DNA from: Eledone cirrhosa
Taxonomy: Eukaryota
Assembly (NCBI GenBank): GCA_964016885.1
Contig: OZ024762.1
Coordinates: forward strand, 7,192,001 to 7,256,000
Length of the DNA: 64,000 nt
Reading direction: 5' to 3'
Every line of letters starts with the position of its first letter. The stretch's first letter is position 1. A model generated the notes under the pieces. That model did no database searches and was not told the origin of the DNA. It worked only from the letters and a program-made list of their open reading frames with translations. The position numbers were made by a program, and so were the translations under genes. Below, piece after piece: positions 25,724 through 61,230 of the stretch.

Positions 25724-26620
25724 AGCCTCTGCCCTTCTAAAATCCCGGAGAGCTCAATTTGCTGGCCACTGTCACCGTGCCAGCAATGAAATCATATCTC
25801 CTCTCTTGTTCTGGAACCCTGACTCTGAGAGGAGATTGGATGGCACATATACCCGCCTCTTAATGAGAGTGCAAAACCTATCCTGGAAACGACATCCCAC
25901 CTTGTCTAAAATCTATGGCAAACTCCCTCGAGCCTCTGCCCTTCTAAAATCCCGGAGAGCTCAATTTGCTGGCCACTGTCACCGTGCCAGCAATGAAATC
26001 ATATCTCCTCTCTTGTTCTGGAACCCTGACTCTGAGAGGAGATTGGATGGCACATATACCCGCCTCTTAATGAGAGTGCAAAACCTATCCTGGAAACGAC
26101 ATCCCACCTTGTCTAAAATCTATGGCAAACTCCCTCGAGCCTCTGCCCTTCTAAAATCCCGGAGAGCTCAATTTGCTGGCCACTGTCACCGTGCCAGCAA
26201 TGAAATCATATCTCCTCTCTTGTTCTGGAACCCTGACTCTGAGAGGAGATTGGATGGCACATATACCCGCCTCTTAATGAGAGTGCAAAACCTATCCTGG
26301 AAACGACATCCCACCTTGTCTAAAATCTATGGCAAACTCCCTCGAGCCTCTGCCCTTCTAAAATCCCGGAGAGCTCAATTTGCTGGCCACTGTCACCGTG
26401 CCAGCAATGAAATCATATCCGCTCTCTTGCTCTGGAACCCTGACTCCAGCCTGACTAGGAGTAGGAAGCTGTCATTCCCTGACGTTATCTCTAGGGATAC
26501 GGGAATCAGTAGACAGGACCTGGGGGCAGCGATGGGGGACGGGGAATTCTGGGGCATGAGAGTGAGATCCATCATCTCGACAGTAGTCGACGAATGATGA
26601 TGATGATGATGATGATGATT
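25724..26620 (+). mobile_element. RTE-like LINE 3' end with internal 207-bp tandem amplification and (TGA)n tail
   Basis: LDGTYTRLLMRVQNLSWKRHPT...FAGHCHRA repeated 3x in frame; stop at 26595-26597 followed by (tga)n. Confidence 0.9.
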
Positions 26621-36329: not shown

Positions 36330-39300
36330 AGTAGTGTTGGTGGTAGTGGTGGTCTTAGTGTTGGTGGTAGTGTGTTGGTGGTAGTGTGTTGGTGGTGGTG
36401 GTCTTAGTGTTGGTGGTAGTGTGTTGGTGGTGGTGGCCTTAGTGTTGGTGGTAGTGGTGTTGATGGTGGTGGTCTTAGTGTTGGTGGTAGTGTGTTGGTG
36501 GTAGTGGTGTTGATGGTGGTGGTCTTAGTGTTGGTGGTAGTGTGTTGGTGGTGGTGGCCTTAGTGTTGGTGGTAGTGTGTTGGTGGTAGTGGTGTTGATG
36601 GTGGTGGTCTTAGTGTTGGTGGTAGTGTGTTGGTGGTGGTGGTCTTAGTGTTGGTGGTAGTGTGTTGGTGGTAGTGGTGTTGATGGTGGTGGTCTTAGTG
36701 TTGGTGGTAGTGTGTTGGTGGTGGTGGCCTTAGTGTTGGTGGTAGTGGTGTTGATGGTGGTGGTCTTAGTGTTGGTGGTAGTGTGTTGGTGGTAGTGGTG
36801 TTGATGGTGGTGGTCTTAGTGTTGGTGGTAGTGTGTTGGTGGTGGTGGCCTTAATGTTGGTGGTAGTGGTGTTGATGGTGGTGGTCTTAGTGTTGGTGGT
36901 AGTGTGTTGGTGGTAGTGGTGTTGATGGTGGTGGTCTTAGTGTTGGTGGTAGTGTGTTGGTGGTAGTGGTGTTGATGGTGGTGGTCTTAGTGTTGGTGAT
37001 AGTGTGTTGGTGGTGGTGGCCTTAGTGTTGGTGGTAGTGGTGTTGATGGTGGTGGTCTTAGTGTTGGTGGTAGTGTGTTGGTGGTAGTGGTGTTGATGGT
37101 GGTGGTCTTAGTGTTGGTGGTAGTGTGTTGGTGGTGGTGGCCTTAGTGTTGGTGGTAGTGGTGTTGATGGTGGTGGTCTTAGTGTTGGTGGTAGTGTGTT
37201 GGTGGTAGTGTGTTGGTGGTAGTGGTGGTCTTAGTGTTGGTGGTAGTGTGTTGGTGGTAGTGTGTTGATGGTGGTGGTCTTAGTGTTGGTGGTAGTGTGT
37301 TGGTGGTGGTGGCCTTAGTGTTGGTGGTAGTGGTGTTGATGGTGGTGGTCTTAGTGTTGGTGGTAGTGTGTTGGTGGTGGTGGCCTTAGTGTTGGTGGTA
37401 GTGGTGTTGATGGTGGTGGTCTTAGTGTTGGTGGTAGTGTGTTGGTGGTGGTGGTCTTAGTGTTGGTGGTAGTGGTGTTGATGGTGGTGGTCTTAGTGTT
37501 GGTGGTAGTGGTGTTGATGGTGGTGGTCTTAGTGTTGGTGGTAGTGTGTTGGTGGTGGTGGCCTTAGTGTTGGTGGTAGTGGTGTTGATGGTGGTGGTCT
37601 TAGTGTTGGTGGTAGTGTGTTGGTGGTGGTGGCCTTAGTGTTGGTGGTAGTGGTGTTGATGGTGGTGGTCTTAGTGTTGGTGGTAGTGTGTTGGTGGTGG
37701 TGGTCTTAGTGTTGGTGGTAGTGGTGTTGGTGGTGGTGGTCTTAGTGTTGGTGGTAGTGGTGTTGGTGGTGGTGGTCTTAGTGTTGGTGGTAGTGTGTTG
37801 GTGGTGGTGGCCTTAGTGTTGGTGGTAGTGGTGTTGATGGTGGTGGTCTTAGTGTTGGTGGTAGTGTGTTGGTGGTGGTGGTCTTAGTGTTGGTGGTAGT
37901 GGTGTTGATGGTGGTGGTCTTAGTGTTGGTGGTAGTGGTGTTGATGGTGGTGGTCTTAGTGTTGGTGGTAGTGTGTTGGTGGTGGTGGCCTTAGTGTTGG
38001 TGGTAGTGGTGTTGATGGTGGTGGTCTTAGTGTTGGTGGTAGTGTGTTGGTGGTGGTGGTCTTAGTGTTGGTGGTAGTGGTGTTGGTGGTGGTGGTCTTA
38101 GTGTTGGTGGTAGTGGTGTTGGTGGTGGTGGTCTTAGTGTTGGTGGTAGTGTGTTGGTGGTGGTGGCCTTAGTGTTGGTGGTAGTGGTGTTGATGGTGGT
38201 GGTCTTAGTGTTGGTGGTAGTGTGTTGGTGGTGGTGGTCTTAGTGTTGGTGGTAGTGGTGTTGATGGTGGTGGTCTTAGTGTTGGTGGTAGTGTGTTGGT
38301 GGTGGTGGCCTTAGTGTTGGTGGTAGTGGTGTTGATGGTGGTGGTCTTAGTGTTGGTGGTGGTGGTCTTAGTGTTGGTGGTAGTGGTGTTGGTGGTGGTG
38401 GTCTTAGTGTTGGTGGTAGTGTGTTGGTGGTGGTGGCCTTAGTGTTGGTGGTAGTGGTGTTGATGGTGGTGGTCTTAGTGTTGGTGGTAGTGTGTTGGTG
38501 GTGGTGGCCTTAGTGTTGGTGGTAGTGGTGTTGATGGTGGTGGTCTTAGTGTTGGTGGTAGTGTGTTGGTGGTGGTGGTCTTAGTGTTGGTGGTAGTGGT
38601 GTTGATGGTGGTGGTCTTAGTGTTGGTGGTAGTGTGTTGGTGGTGGTGGCCTTAGTGTTGGTGGTAGTGTGTTGGTGGTGGTGGCCTTAGTGTTGGTGGT
38701 AGTGGTGTTGATGGTGGTGGTCTTAGTGTTGGTGGTAGTGTGTTGGTTGTGGTGGTCTTAGTGTTGGTGGTAGTGGTGTTGGTGGTGGTGGTCTTAGTGT
38801 TGGTGGTAGTGGTGTTGGTGGTGGTGGTCTTAGTGTTGGTGGTAGTGGTGTTGATGGTGGTGGTCTTAGTGTTGGTGGTAGTGTGTTGGTGGTGGTGGCC
38901 TTAGTGTTGGTGGTAGTGGTGTTGATGGTGGTGGTCTTAGTGTTGGTGGTAGTGTGTTGGTGGTGGTGGCCTTAGTGTTGGTGGTAGTGTGTTGGTGGTG
39001 GTGGCCTTAGTGTTGGTGGTAGTGGTGTTGATGGTGGTGGTCTTAGTGTTGGTGGTAGTGTGTTGGTGGTGGTGGTCTTAGTGTTGGTGGTAGTGGTGTT
39101 GGTGGTGGTGGTCTTAGTGTTGGTGGTAGTGGTGTTGGTGGTGGTGGTCTTAGTGTTGGTGGTAGTGGTGTTGATGGTGGTGGTCTTAGTGTTGGTGGTA
39201 GTGTGTTGGTGGTGGTGGCCTTAGTGTTGGTGGTAGTGGTGTTGATGGTGGTGGTCTTAGTGTTGGTGGTAGTGGTGTTGGTGGTGGTGGTCTTAGTGTT

Positions 39301-39870
39301 GGTGGTAGTGTGTTGGTGGTGGTGGCCTTAGTGTTGGTGGTAGTGGTGTTGATGGTGGTGGTCTTAGTGTTGGTGGTAGTGTGTTGGTGGTGGTGGTCTT
39401 AGTGTTGGTGGTAGTGGTGTTGATGGTGGTGGTCTTGGTGGTGGTGGTCTTAGTGTTGGTGGTAGTGGTGTTGATGGTGGTGGTCTTAGTGTTGGTGGTA
39501 GTGTGTTGGTGGTAGTGTGTTGGTGGTGGTGGTCTTAGTGTTGGTGGTAGTGGTGTTGGTGGTGGTGTGTTGGTGGTGGTGGTCTTAGTGTTGGTGGTAG
39601 TGGTGTTGATGGTGGTGGTCTTAGTGTTGGTGGTGGTGGTCTTAGTGTTGGTGGTAGTGGTGTTGATGGTGGTGGTCTTAGTGTTGGTGGTAGTGTGTTG
39701 GTGGTAGTGTGTTGGTGGTGGTGGTCTTAGTGTTGGTGGTAGTGGTGTTGGTGGTGGTGTGTTGGTGGTGGTGGTCTTAGTGTTGGTGGTAGTGGTGTTG
39801 ATGGTGGTGGCCTTAGTGTTGGTGGTAGTGGTGTTGATGGTGGTGGCCTTAGTGTTGGTGGTAGTGGCAG
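36330..39870. repeat. 3.5-kb GT-rich minisatellite (~34-36-bp variant units)
   Basis: gtgttggtggtagtggtgttgatggtggtggtctta and gtgttggtggtagtgtgttggtggtggtggcctta alternate. Confidence 0.95.
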
Positions 39871-39958
39871 TGGTGTTGATGCCAGTGTTAGTGATTGTGT
39901 TTCGCGGCTAGCGTCTCTGATTCGAATGCTGGTTTACACACACATTTATAAATAATTA

Positions 39959-40586: not shown

Positions 40587-40750
40587 ACCAGCCAGACATG
40601 GGAACTGGACAACGGTGTACAATAATTCTGCTCCTCAATGGGTCATTGAGGAGAGGTTTCTAAATGGAGAGAATTACATCTTCCAGGTGAGAGCTAAAAA
40701 TCCTCGAGGCTGGAGTGACTTCAGCAAAACTAGCCAACCATTCTTTCACA
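40587..40750 (+). CDS. ROS1: ROS1-like exon 21 (last FN3)
   Basis: tttcag/gtgagt; WTTVYNNSAPQWVI...YIFQVRAKNPRGWSDFS. Confidence 0.92.
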
Positions 40751-41762
40751 GTGAGTTGTTGTTATATCTATTTCTCATCACCCCCATCATCATCACCACC
40801 ATCACCATCACCACCATCACCACTACCATCACCATCGTCATCATCTAGTGATTTAGTGAAGAACACGACACACAACTCAGTCCAGGAATCGAACCCACAA
40901 CATGATGATCATATATCCAACACTCTTACTACTAGGACATCAAAAAGATGACAGGATTACTTGCCAACGTATTTCTGAATAGACCAAGAAAGAAACGAAG
41001 AACATAAAGTATACAGTCCCCTCTCCACAGCTCCCGCCTTACCGAGCCCCTTGCAATAGAGCTAATCATGTAAAAATAGCTGATGAACTGTAGAACTCCA
41101 GTGGGAAATAAACCGAAATATATGAATGTATTTAGTATTTACGGTAATTTTGTGAATAAACCAAGAGTTATGTACCTTGGTTAGAGATTATTTAGAATTA
41201 TCTCCCTTGTTTCTTTTCATTTATGCTTTTCCTTTCGCTACATTTGTAATAATTACTGTTAATAAAATGGGGACGGATTAACCAAGACCGCCATGTCCCG
41301 ATGTACAATAGTGAACCGGATTAGATCACTCTCCTTCTCGCAGTTTAGGATAGAGTTGAGGCCATTATCGTCTGACTTATGAGAGAGAGAGAGGTGACTA
41401 ATAATGATAAGCTATTCAAAATTCAATGGAATTATCAGTGCAGGCAGTACTAGATTTACCTACAAGCCGACTATATTTGGGCCACACGCCTCCGGAAGCT
41501 TCATTTTAATCATTAGTTTTTATTCTTTAACACTAAATCATTAAACATTATATATATATACCACTGTAAAGTTGGTACCACAACATCCAGTCCAAATAAA
41601 TGAGATAATGAGATCGAGATCGTGTAGGTGTCACGAGAAAAAAAAACACACAGCCCACGCTGTAATGTGGCCGTGTATATACTAATACTCAGCTGTAGCA
41701 ATGAGATGAAAGGGACTGGGGTACATATCATTCCACTGGAAAGTGGACGATTATTAGGAAGA

Positions 41763-41816
<54 letters not shown>

Positions 41817-42215
41817 AGTAAGTAAGACCCCGACGGCTGAGCTCAAGCCGTTTCGACGGCTAATTCTGTACAGAATTAGCCGTCGAAACGGCTTGAGCTC
41901 AGCCGTCGGGGTCTTACTTACTCCTATTACCCACTCTACTACCCTAAGTATTGAGTACTTTGGTGCGTTGTGGTCCACCTGGTTCCTTACCACTTTTCCC
42001 TCGCTATATATATATATATATATATATGTATTGAAATTTCCGTTGAAAACAGAAAAGGTCATAGAAGTAAAGAGTGCTCTATGTAAGTACCAGAGCAAAT
42101 TTTAATGTATAAAAATCAATACAATATAATTACCTCATTACCAGAGGTTTCCCGAATGAGGCGAATACGAAAGAAACGTCTTCATTCGTTCGTCAGACGA
42201 CCATGTTTTATATTG

Positions 42216-42285
42216 CCTCGTCTGACGAACGAATGAAGACGTTTCTTTCGTATTCGCCTCATTCGGGAAACCTCTGGTAATGAGG
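42216..42285 (+). ncRNA. Candidate minimal type-I hammerhead ribozyme (Penelope-like-element type)
   Basis: Stem I cctcgt/atgagg; core CTGACGA 42222-42228; stem II cgaatga/tcattcg; GAAA 42267-42270; short stem III cc/gg; GTA site ending at 42279. Mirror copy on the minus strand at ~42133-42200. Confidence 0.6.
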
Positions 42286-42393
42286 TAATTATATTGTATT
42301 GATTTTTATACATTATATATATATATATATATATATATTGTCCCTCATTGAATATGTTGATAATGTTACTACTTGATGTTTCCAATATTTCAG

Positions 42394-42486
42394 AAATAGA
42401 CCGACCCGAGGGAAATATGTTCCAGTACACAATAATCCCAATAACGTTGTTTATTGTCATCTTCATCTTAATTTTAATTTGTATTT
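42394..42486 (+). CDS. ROS1: ROS1-like exon 22 (transmembrane helix)
   Basis: ttcag/gtaagt; IDRPEGNMFQYTIIPITLFIVIFILILICI, followed in the next exon by the stop-transfer FKKR. Confidence 0.9.
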
Positions 42487-43690
42487 GTAAGTAATATATA
42501 TTTTATATATTTTTATTTTGTTGTTATTTTATGGTGGTGAATTGGCAGTATCAGTTCAGTGGAATGTTAGGCGGTTTGGAGTTACGTCCCTTTACATTCT
42601 AATTTCAAATCTAATTTCAAATTTGGTGATCTTATCCTAAACCCATGATAGCATGGAAGATAGACGTTAAACGATGATGATGATGATGATGATCCACTGA
42701 GTGCTTTGTTCTTTGTATTCAGTGTGTATTATTTACACTAGCAGAAAAACCATCCAAAGGGTGGTTTTCTGCTAGCATGTGTAGTGTGTATATTGATATT
42801 ATACGCAAGTATATATACATGTAGATATGATACATCAAATAAAATCGTAAGTGACAATATACACAGAAATTGAACGAAGTCTATGTTACACTGTCTAATC
42901 CATGAGACATTAAAAAAAAGACGATATTATATATAAACTGCATTAGGAGAAAATTAGTGACGGAAATATATAAATGTTTATTTAAGCGATCGCTAACTGG
43001 AAGTGTTGCCATTTGAAAATTTTATAGAAGTGAATCTTAAAATAACCAACAAAATTATTCATATTTAATCAAGAATAACGAAATTTAGTAGATAAATTAT
43101 GTAATATTCATTCATTATTTATTCAAAGTAATCCAACTTATTTTACAAACGGGATAAAAAAATATATTCTGGACGCAGTCCCGCACTCCTTACTTAGCTA
43201 ATAGTTTAGATAAGGGCAGTGAATTGGCAGTATCGGTAGAGGGTCGGACGCCATGCTTTGCAGCATAGAGTTACGGCCCTTTGCATTCTGAGTTCAAATC
43301 CCGCCAAGGTTAACTTTGCTTTTCATCCTTACGGGGTCGATAAAATAAAGTACCAGTAATGCACTGGAATAATTGCTGGCCTTGTGCCAAAAGTAGAAAC
43401 AATTATTTACATATAGGGACATTCAGATTGAGGTGTTTCACGCTCCTATTTACTTATTTACATAAACAATATATTTTTAGAACTGTTGAGCAGGTAAGAA
43501 TTTTATTGGCTAAGTGGACCAGTCCATTGTGGTTGAAGTCTCCCAGGTCATCTACTAAGTGAACAAGTAGTTGTTTTTGTCAGAACCTTTGTTATGTTAT
43601 GTTCCAGATATCAACTTAATAATGAGAAAGTTAGTTATATTACAAAATCTCTCCAAATTCTTGATTATTTTCAAAATTACTTGAAAATAA

Positions 43691-43807
43691 CTGTTTCTAC
43701 TTTAGGCACAAGGCCAGCAATTATTTGAACTCAGATCGTAAAGGGACGTAACTATGCTGGGAAGCATGGCGTCCGACCCTCTACCGATACTGCCAATCCA
43801 CCGCCCT
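43691..43807 (-). mobile_element. Internally deleted SINE A copy with 15-bp TSD, nested in the AT-rich element
   Basis: attacttgaaaataa at 43676-43690 and 43808-43822; central domain missing. Confidence 0.85.
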
Positions 43808-43947
43808 ATTACTTGAAAATAATAGGCAGTGTCTTGCATTAGAAATATGGTAAAGAAAGTGTTAAAGTGTTTATATTTATCTAAAAACATTTGTTCATAT
43901 TTAATAATGTAATAATACTTAATTAGGTTGCTGCTTAATTATTTCAG

Positions 43948-44083
43948 TGTTCAAGAAGAGACAGACTGAGAAGAAACGAATCACTCATGTTAATGATGGT
44001 CACAACCCTGATGTGGAATTGGCTACATTACAAGATCTACCCCACATTGCCGTCCAACAGAACAACACCCTTTACTCAGTCGG
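43948..44083 (+). CDS. ROS1: ROS1-like exon 23 (juxtamembrane)
   Basis: tttcag/gtacat; FKKRQ...PDVELATLQDLPHIAVQQNNTLYSV, cf. ROS1 DKELAELR. Confidence 0.9.
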
Positions 44084-44528
44084 GTACATACACATTCTCT
44101 CTCTCTCTCTCTTGTCTGCCTCTCTCTTTTTCCCCACTATCATCCCCCTCCCTCTCTCTCAGGGATGTATTAACCCCAAGGAAAGGGTTAAAGAATTCCT
44201 ATTAAAATATTCTAAGATTATTTGATATCCCGCCGAGGTTTACTTTGCCTTTCATCCTTACGGGGTAGATAGAATATAGTACCAGTAATGCACTGGGTAA
44301 TTGCTGGCCTTGTTCCAAAAGTAGAAACAATTATTTGATATAAGAACGCCATGCTTTCTAGCATAGTTACGTCCCTTTACAGTTTGAATTCAAATCCTGT
44401 CGAGGTTAACTTTGCCTTTCATCCTTACGGGGTTGATAGAATATAGTACCAGTAATGTACTGGGTAATTGCTGGCCTTGTGCCAAAAGTAGAAACAATTA
44501 TTTGATATAAGAACCTTTTGCTAAAATA

Positions 44529-44726
44529 CGAGGGTCAGCTAAAAAGTTCATAGGCTGACCAAGATACTCTCATGGAATGACAAAATGAGGTTTATTTTTC
44601 AACATAGATCCTGGAAAGAAGCAATGCCATTATTAATAAGAAGAGTTGAAATTAATGCATGCAAGATTTCCCAGCTCTACCATCACTCCTTCATAGTCAG
44701 CCTATGAACTTTTCAGCTGACCCTTG
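44529..44726. mobile_element. Mariner-type MITE
   Basis: ~31-bp TIRs cgagggtcagctaaaaagttcataggctgac / gtcagcctatgaacttttcagctgacccttg, TA duplications. Confidence 0.9.
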
Positions 44727-45248
44727 TATGTTACAAATGTCATCTTTACAATGAAATAATTAATATTTTTAGGTCAGGAAAAAGTTAAAGAATCCCTATT
44801 AAAATTAAAATATTCTTCACTCACTTATTCCTAAGAGGGTCATAGGGGCAGTTTCCTCAAATACTCCTGCCAGAGGGTCCTATCAGAAGCAACTGTCTCC
44901 AATTGATCTGGCTGGATCTTGAAGTGAGACCAGCCAAGCTCATGGATGTTATCCAGCCATCTTACTCAGGATCTCCTCCTGGGACTCCTGCCAGTTGGTT
45001 TTGCCTGTAAAATCTGTCCAATGATTCTTTCGTGGGACATTCTAACCACATACATGTCCGTAGTACTGTAGCAACTCTACCTGGAGCAACTCTCTGATCT
45101 TTATCATGAAATAATTAATATTTTTGTAAAGCCTCCCTCCACCCCTATCCAAAGCCTTTGCCAATTAATTCAAATCGAATGTATTTCATTCTTCAAAATA
45201 TTGTGAGGAAAGTGTTAAAATGTTCCTGTGATTTTGTGACTCTTGCAG

Positions 45249-45405
45249 TATGGTACCAACTGACGCTGATCTCATTGCTTTGCCACACTTCCGACATGAC
45301 CAACTTATCAGGAAGAAATTCTTGGGAAGTGGAGCTTTTGGTGAAGTCTTTGAAGGTGTTTGTAAAAGCTGTGTAGCAAATGGAGAAACGCGCGTTGCCG
45401 TCAAG
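45249..45405 (+). CDS. ROS1: ROS1-like exon 24 (kinase P-loop, VAVK)
   Basis: tgcag/gtattt; FLGSGAFGEVFEG...VAVK. Confidence 0.97.
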
Positions 45406-45571: not shown

Positions 45572-46186
45572 TTCCTAGGGCAGGTAAAATTCCCAAGATC
45601 CATGGATGAGTTCTCTCCAGCGGTCTCTGTCCCTCATTATCGCTGCCATGTCCTGCGTCTCCAACAGACCAGTGTCTGTCCTTAGGGCATCAACATACGT
45701 TAACCTTGGTCTTCCTCTTCCAGTGTGTCCATGTAGGGGATCCCACAGGAGCATTGAGTGCAATGTCAACTCTGGATGTCAGTATTTGTCACCAAAACTA
45801 TGTCGTCAGCAAATTCAGCATCCGATATCTTTTTCGCCTTAACTCTCCTGCTCTGAGCCGGTGCTACAGTAAAGCCAGGATCCAGCCTGAGATGGAGAAG
45901 AAGCTCAGGGACAACCATAACGGCTTCAGAGAGGGAAGATCAACCACCAGTCACATCCTGATGCTGAGGAGGATATTTGAGGGAGCTAGAGCAAAGTGCC
46001 TTCCTGCGGTCATGGTTTTCATTGACTTTAGGAAGGCCTTTGATTCTGTGGACCGTTACTGCCTGATGAAGATCTTACAGGCTTATGGAATCCCCAAGAA
46101 GATAGTGGACCTGATATCACTGCTCTACGCCAACACCAAAGCCCAAGTCATTACACCTGATGGGATGACAGAGTTCTTTGAGATAC
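45572..46186. mobile_element. RTE-like LINE insertion with 5' inversion and 13-bp TSD
   Basis: Minus-strand C-terminus (LLWDPLHGHTGRGRP) and RT motif (AEFADDI); plus-strand RT N-half (GFREGRST...FIDFRKAFDSV); TSD tgggagtgtatat at 45559-45571 and 46187-46199. Confidence 0.88.
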
Positions 46187-46404
46187 TGGGAGTGTATATA
46201 TTGTTGTGAAAGTATGTGGCTTAGTGGTTAGCATGTTCAGCTCAGGATCATAAGGTTGTGAGTTCAATTTCTGGACAGTTATTGAATTTTTTTGTTGTTG
46301 TTAGTGCAGTTGTCATTGTTGTTGTTAATGAGGTTGTTGCTATTGTTGTTGTTAAATAGACAAAGAAGAAAACCTGCACTATCAATATACAGAGTGTGCT
46401 GAGT

Positions 46405-46892
46405 GGATTTTATTGTGGTACCAGTACTACCACTTTACAGAATGTACTGGGTCCATTTTATTGTGACACCAGTATTACCACTTTACAGAATGTACTGGGT
46501 CCATTTTATTGTGACACCAGTATTACCACTTTACAGTATGTACTGGATCCATTTTATTGTGACACCAGTATTACCACTTTACAGAATGTACTGGGTCCAT
46601 TTTATTGTGACACCAGTATTACCACTTTACAGAATGTACTGGATCCATTTTATTGTGACACCAGTATTACCACTTTACAGAATGTACTGGGTCCATTTTA
46701 TTGTGACACCAGTATTACCACTTTACAGAATGTACTGGGTCCATTTTATTGTGACACCAGTATTACCACTTTACAGTATGTACTGGATCCATTTTATTGT
46801 GACACCAGTATTACCACTTTACAGAATGTACTGGGTCCATTTTATTGTGACACCAGTATTACCACTTTACAGAATGTACTGGGTCCATTTTA
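46405..46892. repeat. Minisatellite, 48-bp unit, ~10 copies, with 240-bp higher-order duplication
   Basis: Sequence lines at 46441/46681, 46501/46741 and 46561/46801 are identical. Confidence 0.95.
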
Positions 46893-46936
46893 TCATTGCA
46901 TGAGACTAAGAGATCTGTCTTCTTGTTTTGTTTCAG

Positions 46937-47131
46937 ACACTGAGGAAATGTGCTTCCGAACATGAGAAGGAAGAATTTTTAAAAGAAGCTTTACTCATGA
47001 GTAACTTCAAACATGAACATATTCTAAGACTATTGGGTGTCTGCTTTGATGGTAACCCTCAGTTCATTGTTCTAGAACTTATGGAAGGCGGGGATTTACT
47101 TCTTTATCTGAGAAACTACCGACCATCTTCG
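46937..47131 (+). CDS. ROS1: ROS1-like exon 25 (kinase alphaC, hinge)
   Basis: tttcag/gtaagt; TLRKCASEHEKEEFLKEALLMSNFKHEHIL...FIVLELMEGGDLLLYLR. Confidence 0.97.
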
Positions 47132-56449: not shown

Positions 56450-58830
56450 AAATTAAGTGAACAAAAACTAGTTTGTCAGACTCGTGTAATAAGAACTAAT
56501 GAATGGAAAAGCAAGTTGGAATTGGGGGAACTGAGTAGAGAGATTAAGGTGGAAAGTGAGGTAGATCAGGCAAATGAGCATGTAGAAAGTGGAGTGAAGG
56601 TAAATGAGCCAGTAGAAAATTAGGGTGAAGTGGTTGGGAGACTTGAGGAGGTAACTGAAGAAGACAATGATCTAATGATTGAGATAAATAACATCTGGAG
56701 TAAAGATATAGCCATTGAGAAAATGAACGCTGAGACGGGCTAGGGGAAGATTTTGTTGATATTGTGAATTTGATGGTCAATGAAAATAATAACGATAGTG
56801 GAAAACCTATGAAGCTAAGATTTGAAGATAGAAAAAAAAAAGATAAAACAAATGACAGCTACGGTAAACAGAGTCGTCTTATACCTGAAGGTAAAGAATC
56901 CTTACCAAATCAACAACATCCTTAAAGCAGCTGCAAATGTGGTGAAATAATTGCTAGGTTTCAAGACTCTTGGGAAAACAGATGAGAAAGGACAGAACCT
57001 TGGTGGAATGGTCAAATCAAGGAAATAAAGGAGATTGGGAAACTTGACTCTTTATTAAATGGGACACTACAAAACATAGATACTAAGGATAGATTAACAA
57101 GGTGAAGTACTGCAGTGGTTGACAAAAGGTACCATGGTTCTAATAATGGAAGACCTAGTCAAGCGAAATGATGTTACCAACTATAGGCCAATTACATGTC
57201 TGTCCTTAATGTCGCAATTGCTAACAAGAGGAAATCTATCACCACCTCGACATAAACAACTTATAACCGAAGGAACAGAAAGGATGCTGAAAGAAGTCCC
57301 ATGGTACAAAGTTACTTATTAACATGGTACCAGTTACTTATTAACAAGTTAATAATAAGGAACTGCAAGAGGAGACACACTGGTCTTGCCATGGGATGGA
57401 TAGACTACAAGAAGGCATTCAACATGGTTCCTCATTCTTGGATAACAAAGTGCCTGGAAGTCTTCAAGGTGGCAGACAACATCAGACTGTTATTATGTAA
57501 TAGAATGGAGAACTGGGAGACAGAGTTAACATCAGGGGAAGAATATTTGGCAGAAGTGAAAATCAAGAGAGGTATCTACCAAGGATATAGTTTCTCCCCT
57601 TTATTGTTTGTTTTTACCCTCATACCCTTGTCCTTCATATTACAAAAAGTGAAGGCAATATATGAACTGGAAAGAGAACTTATTATCAACCACTTTCTCT
57701 TCATGGATGACCTAAAACTCTTCAGGAAGGGTGGGGAGGAATTGGATGTACTTGTTAACACAGTTCGTATTTTCAGCAATTATATATGTATGGAATTTGA
57801 TGTTAATAGGTGTGAAGTCCTAATTATCAGGAGAGGTAAATTGAAGAGCAACCATTCTCTGGGATATGCCAATACATACAGACAGAGAGATCAAAGCCAA
57901 CCAGATGTTAGAGTCTAAGACCACATAGAAACAAAATGCCTTCAAATAGATGTAGCAATCCCCACAGACGATAATATATCTTCCAAGGAAATAGAGAAAT
58001 TCTCCAAATATAAATATCTAGAGGTAGAAATAACCCGAATGTGGAAAATGAAAACAGAAACAATACCTATAATAATAGGTGCTCTGGGAATGATAAAAAA
58101 CACACAAATACATAGCCAAACCCTGAGACTTACAAATATATACAGCATACAAAAGATAGCACTACTAGGCACTGTATATATATTATATAGAGTACCACAG
58201 GACTTACAAATATATACAGCATACAGAAGATAGCACTACTAGGTACTGTATATATATTATATAGAGTACCACAGGACTTACAAATATATACAACATACAA
58301 AAGATAGCACTACTAGGCACTGTATATATATATAGAGTACCACAGGACTTACAAATATATACAACATACAAAAGATAGCACTACTAGGCACTGTATATAT
58401 ATTATATAGAGTACCACAGGACTTACAAATATATACAGCATACAAAAGATAGCACTACTAGGTACTGTATATATATTATATAGAGTACCACAGGACTTAC
58501 AAATATATACAGCATACAAAAGATAGCACTACTAGGCACTGTATATATATTATATAGAGTACCACAGGACTTACAAATATATACAACATACAAAAGATAG
58601 CACTACTAGGCACTGTATATATATTATATAGAGTACCACAGGACTTACAAATATATACAGCATACAAAAGATAGCACTACTAGGCACTACTAGGCACTGC
58701 ACACATATTACGAAAAGTACTATCAATACAATAGAAACAACATCAGCAAAAAACTACACTGCACATACCCAAGGTACACAGAGCTGTGCTCGGTAAAGCA
58801 GTAATGATGCGCAATAAAAATAATAATGGA
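56450..58830 (+). mobile_element. R4/Dong-clade non-LTR retrotransposon, degraded and internally deleted
   Basis: NYRPITCL, WIDYKKAFNMVPHSWI, RGIYQG.S.SPLLF, HFLFMDDLKLF (RT); IDVAIP...EKFSKY...MWKMKTETIPIIIGALG (RLE); flanked by (TAA)n-like repeats. 5' boundary approximate. Confidence 0.85.
58127..58700. repeat. Minisatellite, ~74-bp unit, ~7.5 copies, derived from the R4 element 3' coding end
   Basis: gacttacaaatatatacagcatacaaaagatagcactactaggcactg... encodes IQKIALLGT. Confidence 0.9.
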
Positions 58831-58871: not shown

Positions 58872-61230
58872 CAATCAGGGCCCACCCAGTGCCTGGTTCA
58901 TTAGCTACCCTCTCCATGATGTATCGCACGAGGTGGAGGTTGTTGAGGCTGGATCTCTTGGGAATGGCGCGTGTCTGTCCCTCTTCCACCAGACATCTGT
59001 GACAAGTGACAACTTTGTTGGTAATACCTTGACCAGAATGTCAGCATATATTCTTTTCAAGAGGGTCTCTCAATGGTCTCCAATTGCCGCAGGGAACGTT
59101 TTCTTTAAGGGTGTATATGTCTTTTGTGAAATTTTCATTATTTTTATGTACATGGGAGGTGCAATTTTTGGGGTTTGTATGTAATTTAGGAGTTTTTATG
59201 TTGTCTGCGTCTATAGCTGTGTATTGTGTCTGCTTCTGGGATGTTGGTGCTTTCTGTGTTTGCTGTGGCGTTGATGGAGGTGACGATGGGGTTGATGATA
59301 ATGATGGTGGTGGTGGTGGTGGTGGTGGTGGAGGTGATGGTTTTGCTGATGTGGGGGTGTGGCTGTTGATGATGATGGTGATGGGGCATTGATGTCTACA
59401 CTTATTTTGTTTTTTTTTCGTCCTCTTTTTTTTTTTTTTTTTTTTGCTCTGACAGTTTTCCGCCCTTCAGTGTCATCAAACACTTTGCCTATTGCGCGAT
59501 ATCAGGAAGGGGGATGCTTCCCACTAGTCTTGATGGCACTGTTGATGGTGGAGATGGTGTTTCTATTGTTGGTGTCGCTGGTGCTGGTAGTTTAGCCACC
59601 ACTGCAAACTCAGATGGCTTGGCCCCTCTAGTTGTGAGGCATGGGATAGGGGGAAGACGAGAGCACATGTCCACCTTGGTTAGTTTTGAGCAGAAGGCTG
59701 TTAGGTGTGTTTTATCTCTGCATCTGTGACACTTTGACCTTCTACCTTCGACAGTCACGGGTAGGTGGCTGCCGTTGTCCAGCTAGATCACTTTGGAAAT
59801 GGCCTCTATATTTTTTGTGGTTTTATTGGATGATCAGCTCCATCCCCAAGCCTGACCCATTCCCTTGTTTGATGCACATGACATCTAAGATAGTGGTCAT
59901 CCCTTTAACGTCAGCGAGGACAGGCGCCATCAACCAAGCGATTTCTACTGAGGATGGAACCTGGATCATTCGGACCCTCACAAAACTTTTTGACCGCATC
60001 GTTATTTCCTCACTATGGAGTAGTGTAATGGAGTGTGCTCTGGCTTCTTCAGGTGTAGTGAAGAGAACATCCACAATACCATATTTTGTCCTTCGAGCTA
60101 TGTAAGTTTTCTGTGCCCAGACAGCACCCAGAGTCCTTTGGACATGCAACTCAGTCGCCCATTCCACTTGGCGCAATTAATTGTACAGTATGAGACCATA
60201 CACAGGCATTGGTTTTTCAAGACATCGGAGGGATGGGCGAACCTGACGTTGTGTCCACTCTTCTTGACCAAGAGTTTGGCCTCCCTCATCTCACTGTCGC
60301 TGACAGTGGAGTTTTTTCTACATTTTTGGCAGCCCTTGTGAAGGATATTGTCGCTTGGACAGCTCTTGCCTGCTTTACAGGCTCATCTCTTCTGCTGTTT
60401 TTGTTGTTGTTGTTGTTGTTGCTGTTGGTAATGGTGGTGGCAGTAGCGGCAGTGGTGGTAGTGTCTGAACAGATGTTGTTTTCAGTCGGTGTGGTGGTGG
60501 TGGTGGTGCTGGTGGTGGTGGTAGTGGTAGTGTCTGAACAGATGTTGTTTTCAGTCGGTGTGGTGGTGGTGGTGGTAGTGGTAGTGTCTGAACAGATGTT
60601 GTTTTCAGTCGGTGTGGTGGTGGTGGTGGTAGTGGTAGTGTCTGAACAGATGTTGTTTTCAGTCGGTGTGGTGGTGGTGGTAGTGTCTGAACAGATGTTG
60701 TTTTCAGTCGGTGTGGTGGTGGTGGTAGTGTCTGAACAGATGTTGTTTTCAGTCGGTGTGATGGTGGTAGTGGTAGTGTCTGAACAGATGTTATTTTCAG
60801 TCGGTGTGGTGCTGGTGATGCTAGTGTCTGAACAGATGTTGTTTTCAGTCGGTGTGATGGTGGTAGTGGTAGTGTCTGAACAGATGTTGTTTTCAGTCGG
60901 TGTGGTGCTGGTGATGCTAGTGTCTGAACAGATGTTGTTTTCAGTCGGTGTGATGGTGGTAGTGGTAGTGTCTGAACAGATGTTGTTTTCAGTCGGTGTG
61001 ATGGTGGTAGTGGTAGTGTCTGAACAGATGTTGTTTTCAGTCGGTGTGATGGTGGTAGTGGTAGTGTCTGAGCAGATGTTGTTTTCAGTCGGTGTGGTGG
61101 TGGTGGTGGTAGTGGTAGTGTCTGAGCAGATGTTGTTTTCAGTCGGTGTGGTGGTGGTGGCGGTGCTGGTGGCATAATTTGCCTTCAGCTCAATGTCCAA
61201 CCTACTGAAAAGTCACACACTTTTCTCGTG
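58872..61230 (-). mobile_element. Tx1/L1-like retrotransposon relic: ORF1 with CCHC knuckle plus a small RT fragment
   Basis: CHRCRDKTHLTAFC (C-x2-C-x4-H-x4-C); EEGQTRAIPKRSSLNNLHLVRYIMERV resembles the L1/Tx1 RT Q...IPGRSI.DN motif; frameshifts and stops present. Confidence 0.7.
60440..61172. repeat. Minisatellite (45-69-bp units) inside the LINE ORF1 N-terminus
   Basis: gtgtctgaacagatgttgttttcagtcggtgtg plus a variable (GGT)n; ~14 copies encoding PTENNICSDTTT on the minus strand. Confidence 0.9.

Follow-up and report, generated by a model that had tools for sequence, protein, structure and literature searches.

In an intron of a ROS1-like gene of Eledone cirrhosa, the perfect inverted repeat analysed here very probably arose when a Hydra-type Penelope-like element (PLE) inserted recently, and with heavy 5' truncation, into a (TA)n tract; the hammerhead motif that it carries is predicted to be a locked passenger. 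Most likely, the locus is ordinary transposon debris, and as one of dozens of similar stubs it is of little consequence. The family from which it derives is young and abundant, possesses intact ORFs, and may offer a substrate in which PLE inversion and tail formation could be tested, and possibly also the ability of a hammerhead to cut when A-G adjoins its core. All coordinates below are those of the window, i.e. the whole stretch of 64,000 nt analysed.

Architecture of the insertion and its host gene

The inverted repeat consists of two arms of 98 nt (42103-42200 and 42218-42315) that are 100% complementary and are separated by a 17-nt spacer, as described with the same coordinates in the initial annotation. 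That annotation also placed the unit against (TA)n, which holds; however, the repeat is not the whole unit, as the left arm continues for a further 75 nt to 42028, giving an insertion of 288 bp (42028-42315) with both ends in (TA)n. The Penelope-like origin proposed for the unit is borne out by a parent reverse transcriptase (RT)-endonuclease frame lying upstream of the motif in longer copies, and the proposed inverted pLTR arrangement by two head-to-head 3' ends, one of which carries a tail. The features discussed are as follows:

40587-40750 (+): upstream exon of the ROS1-like gene, joined directly to 42394 in one contig
41812-42004 (unstranded): insertion of a second family within the same (TA)n array, in short-arm/long-arm layout and made up of a 58-bp perfect palindrome and a 77-nt tail
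42005-42027 (unstranded): (TA)n sequence at the long end
42028-42315 (unstranded): whole insertion, two head-to-head 5'-truncated pLTRs (3' ends) of a Hydra-type Penelope-like element, by motif, with the 3' ends outward
42028-42200 (-): long arm, beginning 4 nt upstream of the ribozyme core and stopping at the family's long 3' end
42028-42102 (-): 75-nt 'tail', present on a single arm only; in tandem copies it continues into the ORF leader
42129-42200 (-): the motif as present on the antisense strand, its stem I shortened to 4 bp
42201-42315 (+): short arm, beginning 21 nt upstream of the core and stopping at the family's short 3' end
42201-42217 (+): 17-nt 'spacer', ordinary upstream pLTR sequence that is part of the short (right) arm
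42212-42289 (+): type I hammerhead motif, with CUGACGA at 42222-42228, GAAA at 42267-42270 and a predicted cut after 42279
42314-42338 (unstranded): (TA)n sequence at the short end
42394-42486 (+): transmembrane (TM) exon of the ROS1/sevenless-like gene, coding for a hydrophobic, transmembrane-like stretch

Compared with other copies in the genome, the long arm is 97-99% identical over 172 nt, while the short arm (115 nt) is 100% identical to many copies. The junction between the arms (42200/42201) was found once only among the 50 loci listed.

The identity of the host gene is indicated by a downstream exon with kinase homology, for which the three best matches among solved structures are ROS (E 4e-47, versus 7e-33 for ALK), and by another exon, upstream in the gene, that matches fibronectin III. 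The acceptor AG of the TM exon has its last base at 42393, confirming the 78-nt distance from the end of the repeat (42315) reported previously. In a 5,917-nt contig from run X4, 40587-40750, the TM exon, 43948-44082 and 45248-45405 occupy abutting positions in the record, and the intron 40751-42393 was removed in the molecule behind this contig, with or without the insertion in it; the observation comes from a single contig, from a run whose library type is not on record. The same contig reveals a 135-nt exon (43948-44082) between the TM exon and the first kinase exon. Other repeats are also present in this part of the genome. The introns past the TM exon (window 42520-45130) harbour a short repeat of very high copy number several times over, in part as pairs in inverted orientation (43213-43268 with 43752-43807), and long minisatellite arrays occur in introns and downstream (37058-39907, 46360-46965, 60194-61212). 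Three further fragments (25725-26597, 45610-46209, 57256-58233), the first of which contains a tandemly repeated segment, resemble LINE reverse transcriptases.

The parent family and its hammerhead motif

The insertion belongs to a high-copy family, as a check of genomic copy number indicates. Matches to the right arm amount to 1,057 candidates in the genome, and 40 of the 40 scored are 100% identical over 111 nt, while the core-and-stem ribozyme pattern occurs in 1,885 copies, with 0 control matches. Copies stop at either of two fixed 3' ends, each then followed by (TA)n (in a sample of 68 copies, taken in positional order on one chromosome, 36 had the long end and 32 the short end), and (TA)n flanks are found at nearly all loci shown, the window included. 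A short head-to-head layout, with 0-30 nt between the cores, is found at 54 loci, among them the ROS1 intron copy, again with 0 control matches, and all 15 of the inverted loci examined combine one long arm with one short arm. The inverted layout is consequently unlikely to be an assembly artefact and is not specific to the ROS1 locus.

Longer copies possess a frame of 719 codons upstream of the motif (intact in three of the four regions fetched, namely L098, L099 and L100), encoding an RT and a C-terminal endonuclease. The anticipated linkage of motif copies to an ORF for PLE RT and endonuclease is thereby recovered, the endonuclease (GIY-YIG) being called from motifs, as a Pfam search with two element frames gave no match. 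Read by eye, the frame contains RWK, DKT (DKG being changed), a CxCx5C linker, and conserved E and N flanked by CxxC and CxH, and CCHH is absent. The motif lies about 1.2 kb past the ORF and, in a tandem copy, about 280 nt before the ORF. The element unit measures about 3.6 kb, a size accounted for by its long 3' UTR.

According to Craig et al. 2021 (PMC8557442), the Hydra clade is marked by RWK, DKT, CxCx5C, CxxC and CxH without CCHH, targets (TA)n, and is generally short (<3 kb). The Eledone family has in common with it these motifs, a single ORF, a C-terminal endonuclease, (TA)n and a hammerhead near the 3' end, and both the Hydra-clade and the hammerhead assignments are based on motifs read by eye against that paper. 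Naiad, which was the first candidate clade, was dropped, since in both domain order and motifs the family follows Hydra. Several features set the family apart from the Hydra elements described there: its length of about 3.6 kb as opposed to generally <3 kb, its tail of 75 nt as opposed to 30-40, and a hammerhead in which A-G takes the place of U-U or G-C beside the core and loop II is much longer. In one RT segment, 28 of 47 residues are identical (by eye) to Hydra-1_Obim, and the hammerheads of the two differ. The family is distinct from Hydra-1_Obim and would be a new Hydra-type PLE, and a literature search, conducted mostly without subscription papers, returned no paper on this PLE family or its junction hot spot (see below). 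Other Hydra-like PLE families with different proteins were seen beside copies of this family (L051 7259-8572, minus strand, and L022), with which they often share (TA)n tracts.

Hammerhead positions include the pairs 10.1-11.1, next to the core, and 15.1-16.1, in stem III. On the plus strand, 42212-42221 pair with 42280-42289 to form a 10-bp stem I, 42230-42236 pair with 42259-42265 to form a 7-bp stem II, in which A 42229 faces G 42266, and stem III reaches 42278 with 3 bp, A15.1-U16.1 included. The core, GAAA box, GUA site at 42279 and 7-bp stem II of the initial annotation therefore stand, while its 6-bp stem I must be extended to 10 bp and its stem III to 3 bp. A copy of the motif is likewise present on the opposite strand of the left arm, as had been claimed, but with its 4-bp stem I it has a predicted probability of the ribozyme fold of 7e-11. 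A motif scan of the window returned six sites, the longest stem II (7 bp) being that at 42222 (+) and 42196 (-), and no second same-strand copy with which a dimer might form was found within the window. The proposed check against Rfam hammerhead covariance models was negative: there was no match in the window at gathering score, nor any locally at E up to 10. Even so, the CUGANGA and GAAA boxes, the NUH site and helices I and II are all present, and it is the G10.1-C11.1 pair of the minimal consensus that this family lacks.

For the monomer alone, the catalytic fold has a predicted probability of about 0.4%, since the 3' strands of stems I and II pair with each other. A dimer duplex through stem III is predicted to comprise 3+3 bp with three mismatches in its centre (-5.1 kcal/mol); loop III is not palindromic in this subfamily, a 6-nt palindrome being present in a few older copies. 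Lunse et al. are said to have treated dimeric PLE hammerheads in 2017. As a group, the minimal type I hammerheads of metazoan PLEs described by Cervera and de la Pena in 2014 (PMC4209133) share with the present motif the core boxes, a long helix II and a tiny helix III, and differ in G10.1-C11.1, which is missing here, in the palindromic loop III, and in helix I, here 10 bp; their paper also mentions dual hammerhead motifs on opposite strands, 100-700 bp apart, and low or absent activity in vitro.

The A-G pair was correctly noted and G10.1-C11.1 is indeed absent, yet the pair is a family trait: among 100 copies listed, 100 have the A and 98 have the G (by eye), and U-U occupies the core-adjacent pair in most Hydra magnipapillata hammerheads listed in PMC8557442 File S2, where many of the listed Hydra hammerheads likewise have a non-Watson-Crick pair next to the core. 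Being family-wide, and given the published U-U, the A-G pair is no mark of decay in this copy. Published measurements of how the 10.1-11.1 pair affects activity were sought in the literature, and none were found. Among diverged copies, L201 has A-U next to the core, and in copies of an older subfamily stem II continues past a bulge to a length of about 11 bp, and a few of these copies have the palindromic loop III; these copies possibly represent a more canonical ancestral ribozyme. Where subfamilies differ in stems I and II, it is mostly one side of a pair that has changed, with pairing retained. Across 32 rows (the window plus 31 of 67 distinct copies, chosen by hand from a search pattern that fixed the core and four stem II pairs), 94.9% of cells are paired, a level reached by 10 of 500 shuffles, and the covariation score of these rows does not exceed that of shuffles (74 of 500 as high).

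The hairpin in ROS1 pre-mRNA

Nearest-neighbour prediction favours the hairpin over the ribozyme fold by 104 kcal/mol, a gap that falls to 81 kcal/mol if all 37 left-arm adenosines are read as G and is still 36 kcal/mol if all 37 are forced to be unpaired. Were the right arm edited at such levels, its five core adenosines would presumably be affected. Transcription produces the antisense arm before the ribozyme arm, and with every prefix folded all right-arm bases were paired to it. These predictions uphold the earlier proposal that the ribozyme is sequestered in a long hairpin; its caveat that the motif may be an inactive TE relic is likewise supported. The hammerhead is likely a passenger, predicted to be locked in the hairpin and to leave with the spliced intron.

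That the hairpin is an ADAR substrate is plausible. Very high hyper-editing is reported for octopus, and palindromic repeats are edited in frog (PMC5625713). The frog Harbinger repeats likewise are short, fold upon themselves and are potential ADAR substrates without a partner copy; in contrast, they are DNA transposons with a consensus that is itself palindromic, whereas here the palindrome would arise at insertion, and they are hyper-edited, whereas the E. cirrhosa hairpin is known here from genomic sequence and predicted fold.

A passive effect on splicing, whereby the 98-bp and 58-bp hairpins near the acceptor modestly change inclusion of the TM exon without any catalysis, is the alternative that fares best, although we consider it improbable. 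In the predicted fold hardly a base of either hairpin is left unpaired (mean unpaired 0.00-0.04), and only 78 nt separate the hairpins from the acceptor, but those last 78 intron bases are outside the hairpin, and the TM exon is included in the one contig seen. The branch point and pyrimidine tract usually fall within this final stretch of an intron.

More doubtful still, and in our view very unlikely, is a releasable switch of the kind proposed in the initial annotation, whereby ADAR or a helicase would open the hairpin and the hammerhead would cut ROS1 pre-mRNA between the ectodomain and TM exons. The pre-mRNA strand does retain an intact core, GUA site and 10-bp stem I, hyper-editing is very high in octopus with palindromic repeats edited in frog (PMC5625713), and one PLE hammerhead is protein-assisted in vitro according to PMC11167929. 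Nevertheless, the gap of 104 kcal/mol, or 36 even with every left-arm A unpaired, the order of the arms, which favours immediate pairing, the monomer fold of about 0.4% and the 54 like loci all speak against it. Moreover, there is no second same-strand copy within the window with which to dimerise, the copy is identical to many young copies and hence too recent for a conserved element, and the flanking exons are joined in the spliced contig.

Junctions and formation of the inverted copies

PMC8557442 reports, for PLEs and Hydra elements, targeting of (TA)n, tails on one side only and copies that are inverted and 5'-truncated, one such copy being noted for Penelope-13_HM. For a lizard PLE, PMC11167929 describes nicking of both strands in vitro and two internal sites of RT initiation by which the tail is delimited, ribozyme cleavage not being needed. 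The ROS1-intron insertion shows the same head-to-head truncation, outward 3' ends, one-sided tail and two fixed ends as these inverted pLTRs, but differs from those in the former source in that its arms are only 115-173 nt, so that the whole insertion is a hairpin, and in the concentration of its family's junctions immediately 5' of stem I.

A potential route for the PLE insertion favoured above, with a twin-priming step taken over from another PLE clade (that of the lizard element), is that the element's endonuclease would nick both strands of (TA)n, and that each nick would prime reverse transcription at one of the two fixed sites on the element RNA, yielding the long end and the short end. 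Two short cDNAs would then halt just upstream of the ribozyme and be joined head to head, and the perfection of the palindrome would reflect the youth of the insertion. As copies retain the whole core, the template RNA would have been uncut. In ROS1 pre-mRNA, the antisense arm would come first and zip up the ribozyme arm, producing an ADAR substrate and no working ribozyme. Against this explanation, the ROS1-intron junction is without microhomology, unlike those of many relatives.

Inversion junctions are concentrated shortly before the start of stem I: 54 loci have 0-30 nt between the cores as compared with 14 that have 31-60 nt (p 1e-6), with nine loci, scored from a different anchor, having junctions around the cut site. 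Similarly, in the 68 sampled copies, seven end 5-16 nt upstream of the core against four in the next 44 nt, estimates of 5' extent being unreliable beyond about 60 nt owing to subfamily divergence. About 15 of the 50 junctions listed are symmetric at a self-complementary A/T word (by eye), and the cause of the hot spot may be either that the RNA starts there or that the A/T word favours joining. We offer tentatively, as something possible though rather doubtful, that the hot spot marks the 5' end of the element RNA (about 10-13 nt upstream of the core), the stubs being run-off cDNAs from both nicks on uncut RNA. If so, the stubs would be the Penelope counterpart of strong-stop DNA, PLE insertion would generate perfect hairpins in introns in a programmed way and would contribute specifically to hyper-editing in octopus, there would be genomic evidence that the hammerhead is mostly uncut when copied, and two-site initiation as published in vitro would be linked to its genomic products.

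Cleavage might also leave a footprint among truncated copies. Of the nine inverted loci with a junction near the cut, three begin within 1-2 nt of it, and in a hand tally of 96 truncated copies 44 begin at most 2 nt from the cut versus 52 over the next 10 positions (p 4e-4 to 1e-6). The excess disappears, however, when compared with an identical context 8 nt downstream (30 rows from 26 loci against 23 rows from 21 loci, p 0.4-0.8), in a control that was tallied by hand on 100 of 139 rows (21 dropped for internal deletions, duplications or divergence, 2 kept apart, 24 in between) and that is perhaps inflated by chance A/T matches. Among ORF-bearing loci, 2 of 30 begin 1 nt before the cut, and these are apparently one duplicated locus. 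Given the possible inflation of the control, a small excess of copies beginning at the cut site is conceivable. Several junctions switch between the strands of stem I via shared sequence, whereby the core is lost from one arm (e.g. G000:C4:34170481, G000:C1:277388762).

The palindrome could conceivably be a self-replicating unit, MITE-like or retrozyme-like, that is copied whole. At least 39 identical palindromes exist in the neighbouring family, and some junctions recur within the ROS1-intron family, but the recurring junctions fall at self-complementary A/T words and could be independent hits, the ROS1-intron junction is unique among the 50 loci listed, and the arms are plain pieces of an autonomous element without tandem monomers; we give this reading very little credence. 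The non-LTR retrozyme, which according to 10.64898/2026.07.22.740005 comprises tandem head-to-tail monomers, each with a hammerhead, was ruled out, the locus being a single inverted pair without tandem monomers. A fold-back artefact of assembly is hardly to be entertained, for although the arms are 100% identical and no examined contig or long read spans the whole unit, the arms differ in length, each stopping at another of the two natural ends of the family, the spacer consists of genuine element sequence, and 54 plus 14 short inverted loci have varied junctions.

The neighbouring palindromic family, one insertion of which shares the (TA)n array, is represented by 2,858 copies of a 5' word. 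Six of 30 copies extend upstream into shared sequence, in which a parent ORF was not found. The family possesses the GAAA-stem-GUC half of a hammerhead-like fold, a search for the canonical core or CUGANGA box having found neither. By eye, and with a pattern that favours this junction, a single built-in microhomology of 4 nt is the joining point at about 19 of 30 sampled loci. Junction clustering is sharper than in the ROS1-intron family, and the longer arm lies on either side, an arrangement that would be more in keeping with end-to-end joining of two cDNAs than with the folding back of a single one.
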